Shown here: piece by piece, positions 1,363-41,756 of the stretch
How positions within the stretch are numbered: the stretch's first letter is position 1
Layout: the number at the start of each line of letters is the position of its first letter
Assembly: GCA_951406725.2 (NCBI GenBank)
Contig: OX597824.1
Coordinates: 34,038,001-34,102,000 of the forward strand
Source of the DNA: Octopus vulgaris
Lineage: Eukaryota
Direction of reading: 5' to 3'
DNA: 64,000 bases
The notes under the pieces: generated by a model
Seen by the model: only the letters and a program-made list of their open reading frames with translations
Told to the model about the DNA's origin: nothing
Databases searched by the model: none
Position numbers and translations under genes: made by a program

Positions 1363-1453
1363 TTTTAGCTGATGAGTACGGGACACGTTTATATGCTGTA
1401 ATTTTTGCAACTTTTAATAAAGCCTGTCCTTGTATGAAACGATTGTACTAAAA
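1363..1453 (+). ncRNA. Type I hammerhead ribozyme motif (C3-G8 core)
   Basis: TTTTAG-CTGATGA-GTACGGGACA..39 nt..TGTCCTTGTAT-GAAAC-GATT-GTA-CTAAAA. Stem I 6 bp, stem II ~10 bp with one bulge, minimal stem III, GUA cleavage triplet. Confidence 0.85.
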
Positions 1454-1704
1454 ACCTATCCATTCTTGTTGCTTCATTCTCGCTTATAATCACCCCACAT
1501 TACTGTATTGTTAAATCAGTATAGTTTTTTTTGGTGCATCTAAGTTAGGTACCATATTCAAGTAAATTCATTTAAATTAACTTGAATCTTTATTGCTTTT
1601 TGAATATATATATATATATATATATATATATATACGTATTACATATATGTGTACGTATTATATGTATGTATATGTATTATATATGCATGATGATGATGAT
1701 ATCA

Positions 1705-2143
1705 TGGTTGTGTGGTAAGTAGCTTGCTTATCAACCACATGGTTCTGGGTTCAGTCCTACTGCATTGCACCTTGGGCAAGTGTTTTCTACTATAGCCTCG
1801 GGCCAACTAAAGCCTTGTGAGTGGATTTGGTAAACGGAAGAAGCCCATCGTATGTATGTATATATATATATATATATATATATATATACACATACATACA
1901 GTGGGCTTCTTCCGTATACATATACATATATGTGTGTGTATGTTTGTGTGTCTATGTTTGTGACCCCATAATTGCTTGACAACCGATGCTGGTGTGTTAT
2001 GTCCCCCGTAACTTAGCAGTTTGGCAAAAGAGACCGATAGAATAAGTACTAGGCTTACAAAGAATAAGTCCTGGGGTCGATTTGCTCGACTAAAAGCGGT
2101 ATTCCATCATGGCCACTGTCAAATGACTGAAACAAGTAAAAGA
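1705..2143 (+). mobile_element. tRNA-derived SINE family A with internal TA/TG microsatellite
   Basis: Head with A-box-like GTGTGGTAAG and B-box-like GGTTCAGTCC; tail AATGACTGAAACAAGTAAAAGA. More than 12 related copies in the window. Confidence 0.8.
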
Positions 2144-2395
2144 GTATATATATATCTATGTGTGTGTATATATATATATGTATATGTATCATGTATATGT
2201 GTGGATATATATATATATATGTATCATATATATGTATATATATATATATATGTATCATATATATGTGTATATATGTATATATATATATATATATGTTGGT
2301 ATATAAATGTATATATATATATATAAATGTATATATATATATATATATATATATATATATATATATATATATATATATATAGATATATAGATATA

Positions 2396-37285: not shown

Positions 37286-39974
37286 TAAATATCAGTATGG
37301 AGGTGGGGTTGAAGTGAGAGAAATAGAAGTGTCCCAGGAAGGAGGAGGTAACAAGCAGTGGCACAGGAATGGAGAGCAGCAGTATCACATATCTGCGAAC
37401 AGATCAGAAAGTAAGGAGATTATGTGCAGGTGCCTTATAGAGGAGATACATAACTGAAGAAGATAAAAGGGAGGTAGTAATTGGGTGCTAGAGCAAATTC
37501 TCAAACAACAAGAAGGTGAGCATATGAGAGGATATGGACAGAGGGTCATGGGAGCAGATGAGAGAGTGGATAATTTCTTAAGAATGTGACAGGAAGAGTG
37601 ACAGAGGGTTAAAGAACGGGATAGAGGTGAATATAGTAAGTGATGAACAAGGATGGAGGTATGGTTGAAGAGGAATACTAGTATAGAGAGAGGTAAAGTG
37701 TGAGATACAGGAATGGTTGAGGGAGGAGAATAGATGAGAAAGTAGGGGAATAATGTGCAAGGTGTACAGCAGTGAAGAGGGAGATATAGAGGTGCATATG
37801 GGCATGATGATAGCAGTACATAAAAGGGCATTGGGAATAATAGTTGACAAGAGAAGTGTTAAGATTGGAGTATAGCAGAGGAAAGAGAGCAATGGCAGAA
37901 GGCACAGTAAGGAAGTGCTTGGTAGAAATAGTGCAGGCAGAATGATAATGAGGAATGGAAGTGGTTCCAGGGAGGGTGAGGGGAGGAAGGATCGAGGTTG
38001 GCTGGAAGGGAGGGAACGTAATATGTGTTCATTCTGCTTTCAGGTGATTACAGTAGCTGAGTAGTACCATAGGTAGGGGTGTAATAAGTGTTAGGAGATG
38101 AGAATCAGTTGGGTGGGGTGGGGGTAATGCTTGATATGTCAGATAGAAAAGAGAGGGGGCTAGATCCATACCCCATCCCCTCCTGCATGTACAAGTTTAG
38201 CAGGGTGGTTTTAAATAAATGTATGTCTATATATATGTGTGTGTGTGTGTGCATACATATATGTAAGCATACATACATGTGTGTATACATATATCTATAT
38301 ACAGAGATAATGATGTAAATAAATAAACTGCTTCGGTTAGATATATAAAATATGCATATGTATTTACATCTTTATTCAACCAAAACCACTTAGTATGTAC
38401 TAAGCAATCTGAGTGGGGAAGGATGTATATATGTATATTTTATATACCAAGTGCAAGCGGTTTATTTATTTGTTTATTTGCATCATTATCTCCATATCTG
38501 CTCACCCGGATTCCTCTTATAGTCACTTTTTACTCTGCAGACTTAGTCCTTGATAAGGACTTTGGAGTGTAAGTTCCAATCATTTGAGCGCTACTAAGTG
38601 TTCGCTATATTGAGCATCTCTGGATCTCATCAACTGACTTTCTCTCTCTCTCTCTCTCTCTCTCTATATATATATATATATATATATATATATATACACA
38701 CATATATATATATATATATATATATATATATATATACGTGTGTGTATGTGTGTTTGTACATATGTAAATGTTTATATATTTATCTTATTGTATATATATA
38801 GGGAACAGCTTTTTTTTCTACATGCTTCATTAAATACATGACTATGTTCAAGTTTCGTCTTTTTTATTTTAGATCTTTTTCCTATTTTTTTCAACATTTC
38901 CACGCCTTCACAATCTCATTTTCAAGAAACGAATGTATTTGGTGTCTGTGTTGTTTCTTTATGCTGGTTGAATTATTTTTTGACTTCTCTGCCAAAGGTC
39001 TTTTGATCATTAGCTTCATGCCTCAGCAGTCACATGAACTGTTTGCTGCAATCAAATTTTAACCATTAATAGCCACATGTTCATTTTTTTAATGTGTGTA
39101 TTTGTGTGTTAATTTTGGTAATGTATTGTAACATGAGTGTTTTCCTTAATCTTCTATTTTTAAGTGGAATTTTATGAAGTACTTAAGTATTTTCCTCTAG
39201 TATTTTCTATTCAAGTTTGTTTTGTAGTGTAATGTTATGTAATGGTCAAGTACATGGTGAGCCTATTTGAGAATGTTGTACTCTGTCCAAAGTAAGAGCT
39301 AAAGCCTTCAAGTTGGTAACTTTCAGTTTTACAGTCAAATTTAAATCTCATGTTGGTCATCTGCAATTGTTCTTAAACTCATGTTTGTGGTGTGTTATGA
39401 ATGAGGAGGTTTTTGGTTTTGATGCGTTTGTAGGATATTATTAGCTTTGAGACCAAAGTTGTTATGGGTACACTTAAGGGACAGACTAAACAAATATCAC
39501 AAGGCATTTTGTCCAACACTTTAAAACGATTCAATCAGTCCAACGCCCTAAACAGGCACTAGATCAGAAGTTTTATTTTTCTTTTTTGGAAGGGCAGGAG
39601 TTGATAAATCAAACTTCAGGCTTTGCACCCATTTAGGGCGTTGGAGTGGTAGAACTGTTAGAGTAACAGGCAAAATACTTTGTGTTATTTATTCCAGTTC
39701 TTTTAAATCTGAATTGAGATCCCATCTAGATCAATTTTGCCTTTCATCCTTTTGGGAACTGTAAAATAAATACCAGCTAAGCACAGGTGTGTTGCTGTAA
39801 ATGACTATCCCCAACCTCCTAAATTTGCTGCACTTGTATCTAAATTTGAAATTATTATGCTTGTTCGTAGTAATGTGCTATATATAGTACAGGGTGACAA
39901 CGCTAAGTAATAATGTGTGCAAAGATACAAACTTTTTACTAGTTCAAATGCTTGAAGCATATTCTTTTTTATTC

Positions 39975-40360
39975 TAGGCCAAGGCTCGAAATTTTGGGGG
40001 AAGGGGCGATTCGATTAGATCGACCGCAATACGCAACTGGTACCTAATTTATCAACCCCGAAAGGATGAAAAGCAAAGTCGACCTCGGCAGAATTTGAAC
40101 TTAGAACGTAAAGACAGAAGATATACCTATTTCTTTACTACCCACAAGGGGCTGAACACAGAGAGGACAAACAAGGACAGACAAACGGATTGAGTCGATT
40201 ATATCGACTCCAGTGCGTAACTGGTACTTATTTAATCGACCCCCGCAGGGATGAAAGGCAAAGTCGACCTCGGCGGAATTTGAACTCCGAACGTAAAGGC
40301 AGACGAAATACGGTTACGCATTTCGCCCGGCGTGCTAACGTTTCTGCCAGTTTGCAGCCT
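39975..40360 (-). mobile_element. Two adjacent or nested SINE family B copies
   Basis: GGATGAAA(A/G)GCAAAGTCGACCTCGGC occurs twice. Confidence 0.8.
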
Positions 40361-41552
40361 TATGCTTCAGGCATATTAGAACCCATTCCGATATAATCAT
40401 TGACTATGATATCTAAAAGGTATTTGTAGAAAATTTCCCAACGGCAAAATACAGTGAATGGCTTTCTTACAGGTTCGAATATATCTTTGAACTGGTAACA
40501 AGTCTGTACTATATATAGTAAGCCATACTTAGAGAAGAGTTAGCTATATGAATATATTAATGATTAGTTTACAGGTTTGTTTTATTTTAAATCAAGTTCT
40601 GATGGACATGATTTACTCAGTACGAAAGTTGAGATAGTTAAGAAAGATGGAAAAATAAAAGAAACACATTTAAAAAGAAATGAAAAAGCGGAATGACAAC
40701 AAAAGCTTAAAGGTAGGAAGAAATATTTGGCCACAGGAGTGGATACGTTTAAAAAGTCGGTCCGTTAATTAAGAGGAGAAAACCAGTCTTTGAAGTGCAG
40801 ATGATGCATACCAAATAAGGAAGCGCGATGTGCAAACCTAAAGGAAACGAGAAGTTGTGGACGAGATAAAGTTGGATAAGCCAGAAGTAATCGTAGTAAA
40901 CAATATATGATAATATCAAAATTATAAGAGAAGAAAAATTAGTAGAATATTATAATACGGCGATACGACAACCGAAACGTTGCCTTATAATACATTAATA
41001 AGACATTAAAAAAATGATAGTAGAATTATAGAGATGATTAAAAATAAAGACGATTATAGAAGTGTTTCTATCCGGTTGAGTGTCAACATTAATAGCAAGG
41101 TGAGAGAAAGGAAGAGAGTATGAGATGAAAGAGAAGTGTCGAAGAGAGAGAAAAAAAGTATTAAACAAAATGGTTGCATAAGCTTGTGGGGGAAAAAAAA
41201 CAGAATCTAGTTAGTTGGATGCAGGGAGAGATTTTGTATGATCCATAGGCTTTATGATAGTATCATAAAGAAGATTAATATAAAGATTACTAAAAAATTC
41301 AGTGAAGCGGGGAGTAGAAGTGTTTATATAAAGGGAGATAACTCTCAACGTGCTTCTGGTGTGTCTTTGTAGATCTAATCATTGGTAGTACATATGTACG
41401 AAGGGGCAAGAATATACATATATACACATGCCTGAACGCCCACACACACACACACATATAGGTATAACTATATAGGTGTTCCCCACCACATCGAATTTGT
41501 TTCCTCATAACTTTCAGAAAAATGGATTTTTAAAAGAAATATTCTACAAATA

Positions 41553-41756
41553 CAACAGCACGGATTTTTGTCAGTGAACAGGTCGCGGTCTTAAAGCGAC
41601 GAAAATATTTTGACAAATTAAACTTAAATGTTGAAGTGAATCGAACGGCTTTAGTGTGTTTCTTAAATGGCTTACAAACACCTTCCAGGCTGCAATTGTT
41701 TTCGTTTCAGCACACGATCTCAGATCAAATCACTTGCTATGCAAGTACATCTCCGT
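41553..41756 (+). mobile_element. ~204-bp hammerhead-bearing non-autonomous retroelement with 15-bp TSD
   Basis: AATATTCTACAAATA at 41538-41552 and 41757-41771. Body nearly identical to the 28142-28457 family. Confidence 0.88.
41567..41617 (+). ncRNA. Minimal type I hammerhead motif, G3-C8 variant
   Basis: TTTGTCA-GTGAACA-G-GTCGC-GGTCTTAAA-GCGAC-GAAA-ATAT-T-T-TGACAAA. Stem I 7 bp, stem II 5 bp, stem III palindrome AATATT. Confidence 0.8.

Follow-up and report, generated by a model that had tools for sequence, protein, structure and literature searches.

Probable minimal hammerhead ribozymes with three forms of the 3-8 core pair behind Penelope-like element reading frames of Octopus vulgaris

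Do the small hammerhead-like motifs scattered through one stretch of the Octopus vulgaris genome, with cores that differ at positions 3 and 8, represent the self-cleaving RNAs of Penelope-like elements (PLEs), or could chance, selective picking and copy number have produced that appearance? The question is raised by 64,000 nucleotides (nt) of contig OX597824.1 (positions 34,038,001 to 34,102,000; hereafter the window) in the 2.8-Gb assembly GCA_951406725.2, a stretch rich in (TA)n and short repeats. An original prediction from this DNA held that three kinds of core all keep a Watson-Crick pair between positions 3 and 8, that the stem III strings are tiny palindromes unable to fold stably in cis, that the motifs match the dimer-dependent minimal hammerheads of PLEs, and that the covariation argues for selection on catalytic function. 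On the evidence below, we consider it likely that these motifs represent minimal hammerheads of type I that sit at the 3' ends (pseudo-long terminal repeats, pseudo-LTRs) of several PLE families, and that they cut tandem RNA as dimers, possibly aided by protein.

The window was scanned with a type I hammerhead descriptor that left positions 3, 6, 7 and 8 free and required a self-complementary stem III (score of 12 or more). Nine full motifs were found (+1369, -768, +8137, +10335, +10786, +14297, -13874, +31227 and +41574), and 9/9 have a Watson-Crick 3-8 pair; 100 local shuffles gave a mean of 0.30 matches, 0.12 of them paired. The full motifs are as follows.

1363..1453, plus strand: hammerhead A, with stem I TTTTAG/CTAAAA, core CUGAUGA (C3-G8), a long loop II, stem III ACGAUUGU and A17
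684..774, minus strand: mirror copy of hammerhead A, in the inverted arm
8131..8177, plus strand: hammerhead E, with core CUGAAGA (C3-G8), an extra G after A9, stem III AGAUUU and C17; a relative of family C
10332..10444, plus strand: hammerhead D, with core CUGAAGA (C3-G8), a long loop II and stem III ACAUGUGU; its family has a U10.1-U11.1 mismatch and is a relative of family B
10781..10818, plus strand: hammerhead F, with stem I TCTTT/AAAGA, variant core CUGUUGA (C3-G8, U6), an extra A after A9, stem II GAGC/GCTC and stem III ACGU
14291..14335, plus strand: hammerhead B, with core UUGACAA (U3-A8), a U10.1-U11.1 mismatch and stem III ACCGGU
13836..13880, minus strand: mirror copy of hammerhead B
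31222..31280, plus strand: a further U3-A8 motif, with core UUGAUAA and stem III ACCCUGGGU, of a low-copy old family
41567..41617, plus strand: hammerhead C, with stem I TTTGTCA/TGACAAA, core GUGAACA (G3-C8), an extra G after A9, stem II GTCGC/GCGAC, stem III AAUAUU and U17

The cores named in the original prediction were thus recovered, both those with C3-G8 (CUGAUGA at +1369 with its mirror at -768, CUGAAGA at +8137 and +10335) and the swapped ones (UUGACAA at +14297 with its mirror at -13874, GUGAACA at +41574), and all seven stem III strings that it listed stand after GAA and are self-complementary with G-U allowed. Two entries held in part: the motif with the ACGT stem (core at 10786) does keep C3-G8, but its core is CUGUUGA, with A6 replaced by U; and the ACAGCTGT copy at 43029 belongs to a family that carries CUGAUGA, but this copy is without the 5' half of the core and lies beyond the range that the prediction had covered. 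The U3-A8 motif at +31227 had been overlooked; 4/4 of its genome matches are U3-A8. The type I core (N3-U-G-A-N-N8-A ... GAAA ... UH, with stems I and II) is present in A, B, C, D, E and 31227; F does not have the A at position 6 and was classed as a core variant. At the base of stem II there is an extra G in C and E, an extra A in F, a U-U mismatch in B and family D, and none of these in A. No hammerhead in the window reached the Rfam gathering thresholds (0 matches), and such a match is not a defining trait of minimal hammerhead variants. Among the 150 of 282 Rfam matches listed for the window, we saw only microsatellite-driven microRNA matches, none at gathering.

Each window motif belongs to a repeat family, so that the pair can be followed through many copies. 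In tallies that were anchored 3' of A9 and excluded loci picked for their departures (overlapping loci may count a copy twice), no family consensus was found to lose the 3-8 pair: it was C-G in 41/41 copies of A, 31/34 of E, 29/32 of F and 6/6 of H, U-A in 37/37 of B and 27/28 of G (a second U3-A8 family), and G-C in 45/48 of C, while D, counted by eye, had C3 in 21/21 and G8 in 20/21. The pair is therefore family-wide in three forms, C-G, U-A and G-C. Because per-family copies are biased towards the query, exact patterns were also counted across the whole genome. The pattern of family B gave 587 matches, with U3-A8 in 98 of the first 100, and that of family C gave 4,263 matches with C8, with G3 in 98 of the first 100; 293 matches had A, C or G at 3 together with a letter other than C at 8. 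The two additional U3-A8 families differ in size, 31227 having 4 matches and G (L175:9953-10000) 1,616 candidates.

A sample of the genome independent of these queries was taken as 100 stretches of 10 kb (1 Mb) at round coordinates, again with positions 3, 6, 7 and 8 free but with stem III unscored (score of 18 or more). It gave 56 matches, 37 of them with a self-complementary stem III, and 36 of those 37 were 3-8 paired; ten shuffles of the sample together gave 53 matches, 4 self-complementary, and 0 also paired. Of the 56 matches, seven belong to a single array and about a dozen to family F; grouped by eye, the independent units amount to about 15 families, of which about 13 are C-G, one is G-C (family C) and one is U-A (G). 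The chance of so many coincident changes at 3 and 8 is roughly 1/105 for 2 of the 15 sampled families and 1/680 for 3 of 17 with B added, if change at the two positions is independent.

These figures bear on the possibility that the pattern reflects chance and ascertainment, the window motifs having been chosen by a reader who was looking for pairing and copy number having amplified a few founders. Only three to four families depart from C-G, and copies within a family do not covary, as such an account would have it; positions 3 and 8 were free in the scans, however, no shuffled motif had both features, the coincidences would be rare, and the place of the motifs downstream of PLE open reading frames (ORFs) agrees with the published one. 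We regard this explanation as very improbable and largely refuted.

The claim that covariation argues for selection stands for comparisons between related families and fails for copies within a family. The parents of B (U-A) and D (C-G) are 48-65% identical, and both families have the U-U mismatch under the core. Families C (G-C) and E (C-G) align across the motif, and their endonucleases are 41% identical; the likeness of their tails scored above all 300 shuffles in 2/4 E copies, while 3 and 8 of 300 shuffles reached it for the other two. Between C and E there are further compensating pairs, G-C to A-U in stem I and A-U to G-C in stem II, together with two different self-complementary stem III strings. 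Since the swaps are found between families and are absent among copies, selection would have acted on the source elements, each change at 3 being matched at 8, while genomic copies decay; for the same reason R-scape on alignments of copies would show little.

Within family C, a C3-G8 subfamily was considered and rejected (0 matches to the strict pattern, and 2 of the 30 C3 copies), and its G8 copies are not one clade. Among the first 100 listed copies without C8, G is about as common as T, more than transversion would suggest. One family C copy (L102:514-579) has a patch of about 20 nt identical to a family E copy, giving C3-G8, possibly by template switch or gene conversion.

The link to PLEs was confirmed by ORFs with pieces of reverse transcriptase (RT) and/or GIY-YIG endonuclease: families A, B, C, D and F, and one copy of E, have such an ORF upstream on their own strand, at a distance of 0.7-2.1 kb; five of the seven listed families thus adjoin their own PLE ORF on its 3' side, and the sixth (E) does so in one copy. 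Family A follows an intact ORF of 953 amino acids (aa; L096:3107-5965) with RWK and DKT motifs, a CxCx5C linker, a C-terminal GIY-YIG and a (TA)n target, which places its parent in the Hydra clade by motif criteria alone. Family B lies 2.0 kb downstream of a thumb, cysteine linker and GIY-YIG (L091), D 1.4 kb downstream of a frameshifted relative of B's parent, and, in several loci, F lies 0.7-1.0 kb downstream of its endonuclease, with a tandem arrangement in L369. Family C is 1.5 kb downstream of an ORF that is open for at least 975 aa in L381 (the parent ORF is also present in L372) and whose Atlas neighbours carry RVT_1, HTH_animal and GIY-YIG; among the matches listed on contig C1, a G3-C8 match lies 1.15-1.3 kb downstream on the same strand for 3/3 close endonuclease matches. 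The E copy is 0.86 kb downstream of the endonuclease related to C's. The CX2-5CxxC linker in the parents of B, C and F points to the Neptune or Nematis clade. Parents of families G, H and 31227 were searched for and not found, so these three are not tied to a PLE. Families A and C, with their open frames, may still be mobile.

How such motifs could work depends on stem III. As had been predicted, it is unstable in cis: in the six full motifs that were folded, the best cis hairpin was +2.4 to +6.0 kcal/mol or impossible, and the probability of a cis A15.1-U16.1 pair was at most 0.023. In trans, self-duplexes of stem III reached -8.3 kcal/mol in B, -6.0 in D and -5.8 in A. Two motifs in one tandem transcript could pair their stem III strings with each other and so complete both cores, and cleavage would then trim the tandem precursor, perhaps with the help of the element's protein. 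Tandem direct copies exist for C (in arrays, at about 215-260 nt) and for F (at 1.55 kb). Two such arrays, of 4 and 5 family C units between (TA)n (L094:3835-4732 and L095:4244-5391), would be a natural dimer substrate. A separate array (L149:3082-7693) is retrozyme-like in form: its units of 353-359 nt, five in direct and two in inverted orientation, each have an intact C3-G8 motif and an ACCGGT stem III.

The two least conventional cores belong to very abundant families. In family F, U6 is found in 30/32 copies, position 7 takes all four letters, and 3-6, 8 and 9 are fixed; in its tree, successive subfamilies form a ladder along which 7 and 17 change and U6 is retained. The 32-letter U6 pattern has 7,672 exact matches genome-wide, and the non-U6 pattern, one base shorter, has 496, mostly C at position 6 (about 69 of the first 100 by eye). 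At 22 copies per sampled Mb, extrapolation gives some 60,000 copies in the genome. Contigs from four runs, presumed to be RNA, cover the F unit with variants at 7 and none above 10% at 6, although ends and strand are not readable from contigs. An A6 subfamily of F is unsupported (the non-U6 copies being mostly C), and a reading of the core as UUGAAGA was rejected, as it would break stem II and make position 4 variable. Both of these cores, G3-C8 and U6, are probably slower, though tolerated. We suggest, tentatively, that the G3-C8 core of a young autonomous PLE with open ORFs and the CUGUNGA (A6U) core of a long subfamily succession with tens of thousands of copies may be undescribed natural cores present in very many copies, still active at a lowered level or with rescue by dimer or protein, and thus a natural allelic series on the need to cut.

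Several points weigh against cleavage by dimers at PLE ends, or narrow its reach. The trans duplexes of stem III are weak in F (-1.7 kcal/mol), C (-0.2) and E (about 0); the inverted pairs in the window sit on opposite strands, so that one transcript could not yield a tandem dimer; none of 28 F and 10 C copies begins within 3 nt of the cut site, which is expected for 3' ends and gives no support; and 27/30 family C copies with C3 keep C8. The sampled families were grouped by eye, and most per-family copies are best matches to a query. U6 departs from a conserved core letter, and a natural A6C hammerhead is described as slow (PMC3088659). In the published account of a PLE hammerhead of Anolis (PMC11167929), the motif cut only with protein, no RNA reads ended at the cut, and uncut RNA was the main template, which does not fit the simplest picture; in the same account C3G and G8C each kill activity and the double mutant partly rescues it, which we count in favour of dimer cleavage by a paired core, as we do the finding that dimers cut weakly and the monomer not (PMC4209133).

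Some of these points would be accommodated if the motifs were genuine PLE hammerheads activated mainly by the RT-endonuclease protein as a chaperone, which would act either on one motif or on a pair of RNAs bound by a protein dimer, and not as RNA-only tandem dimers. The need for protein in the Anolis system, where the protein is predicted to dimerize (PMC11167929), the weak trans duplexes of C, E and F, and the many copies that stand solo or on opposite strands all fit this view. Self-complementarity of stem III, however, is needless for the folding of a single motif and is kept through many sequences (37/56, against 4/53 in shuffles), and RNA-only dimers did cut weakly in PMC4209133; we regard the chaperone explanation as a serious if rather unlikely competitor.

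It is more doubtful still that the fold is kept for a role other than cutting, such as dimerizing the RNA, binding protein or setting where reverse transcription starts, with little or no catalysis left in the G3-C8 and U6 families. Family F did reach at least 7,672 exact U6 copies, mutation of the hammerhead leaves insertion in vitro normal (PMC11167929), and Naiad PLEs thrive without canonical motifs (PMC8557442). Along the ladder of F subfamilies, however, the 3-8 pair, G5, G8/C8, A9 and G12-A14 are fixed while 7 and 17 change, as an active fold predicts, and an engineered G3-C8 swap was partly active in a PLE hammerhead (PMC11167929), so that we consider a non-cutting role to be improbable and retain dimer cleavage, possibly aided by protein, as the better explanation.

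The window copies themselves are likely inactive, being 5'-truncated, mostly inverted and now drifting. In their insertions the arms are inverted and truncated, the tail is on one side and the targets are (TA)n, a style described for PLEs (PMC8557442).

653..1603, both strands: family A fold-back, two 416-nt arms (653-1484) and a 3' tail that reaches about 1603, the whole with (TA)n runs on either side; the 3' end of a Hydra-clade PLE
10159..10483, both strands: older family D fold-back, whose left arm carries the 3' half of the motif only
13755..14380, both strands: family B fold-back, 295-nt arms (13791-14380) with a longer tail on the left; the 3' end of a PLE with a Neptune/Nematis-type linker
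28143..28456, both strands: second family C insertion, an inverted pair; the minus-strand copy keeps GUGAACA with damaged stems, and the plus-strand copy begins inside loop II
41556..41757, plus strand: family C 3' end piece of 202 nt
42960..43047, both strands: family H fold-back; both arms begin inside loop II and hold the GAA-ACAGCUGU half only

The arms are identical at 414/416 positions in family A, whose genome copies are 99-100% alike, and at 290/295 in family B. The family C piece at 41556 is flanked by a 15-nt direct repeat (41538-41552 and 41757-41771), likely a target-site duplication. Many family C copies (this one and those in L017, L019, L320, L325 and L334) share a start about 11 nt upstream of stem I, directly behind a CTAAC...TTTCTCAG stretch that resembles a branch point and splice acceptor; inverted family C pairs often join at this start, which could mark a promoter or an intron end.

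The window also holds a 524-aa open frame of the LINE (long interspersed nuclear element) type with RVT_1 (18074-19648, minus strand), which was rejected as a PLE RT on finding no meaningful blastp match to three PLE parents; a frameshifted mariner-type transposase with HTH_48 and Transposase_1 (24153-25176, plus strand); pieces of a PIF1-like helicase in two frames, probably a Helitron remnant (55794-57012, plus strand); and inverted repeats or hairpins with no scored hammerhead (8703-9503, 12861-13599, 38304-38492 and 50738-50822), possibly fold-back ends of other elements. Elsewhere, L373:3-2870 is a 956-aa open frame that by eye resembles an LTR-retrotransposon pol with RT, RNase H and integrase.

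The role of hammerheads in PLEs is unsettled in the literature (PMC8557442), and they are dispensable for insertion in vitro (PMC11167929). Related lineages that swap both halves of the 3-8 pair suggest a contact of the active fold that was under selection in source elements. Descriptors with a fixed CUGANGA miss the G3-C8 and U6 families, and hammerhead counts in such genomes are therefore underestimated. The amount of cutting that a PLE needs could be asked of two natural substrates that are ready to hand, the G3-C8 family with its open ORF and the U6 family with its very high copy number. Lünse, Weinberg and Breaker reportedly described, in 2017, small hammerhead variants that are linked to PLEs and cleave as dimers. 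In the literature searched, which did not extend to that 2017 work or to one supplement of PMC4209133 (either may hold them), no natural G3-C8 or A6U hammerhead was found; G3-C8 appears in PMC3884650 as data not shown.

Much of what we describe is already published: minimal hammerheads of PLEs, palindromic stem III, the extra nucleotide, opposite-strand pairs and U3-A8 in PMC4209133, and U3-A8, the U-U mismatch and A6C in PMC3088659. The closest likeness is to the minimal hammerhead ribozymes of metazoan PLEs (Cervera and de la Peña, 2014; PMC4209133), which are type I with a tiny palindromic stem III, an extra nucleotide between 9 and 10.1 and a pseudo-LTR location, occur mostly as truncated copies with opposite-strand pairs 100-700 bp apart, and include a U3-A8 swap (Schistosoma Cercyon); the main text of that study has no G3-C8 or U6 family and no octopus data, and families A and D differ from its motifs in their 46-76 nt loops in stem II. 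The natural core variants of Perreault et al. (2011; PMC3088659) share U3-A8 covariation, the U10.1-U11.1 mismatch and a change at 6 that is slow but active; the variant section of that paper has no G3-C8 or A6U, and its A6C comes from one phage sequence and not from a high-copy retroelement family. The account of Hydra-clade and Neptune/Nematis PLEs by Craig et al. (2021; PMC8557442) includes an octopus Hydra element that bears a hammerhead, and a U-U between core and stem II occurs commonly there, whereas the listed Hydra and Chlamys motifs are all C3-G8 and A6, and the family A motif is unlike that of Hydra-1_Obim.

Non-LTR retrozymes (PMC7229834; bioRxiv 10.64898/2026.07.22.740005) form short tandem arrays with type I hammerheads and are proposed to derive from PLE ends, much like L094, L095 and L149; the window copies differ as monomers or inverted pairs tied to autonomous parents, and tandem arrays of short full-motif units, absent from the window, are present elsewhere for C and in L149. 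The Poseidon PAc hammerhead of Anolis (Frangieh et al., 2024; PMC11167929) is likewise a PLE hammerhead in which the 3-8 pair has been tested, with a tail that bears two reverse transcription start sites; G3-C8 is an engineered double mutant there, whereas an octopus family with open ORFs has it as its wild-type core.

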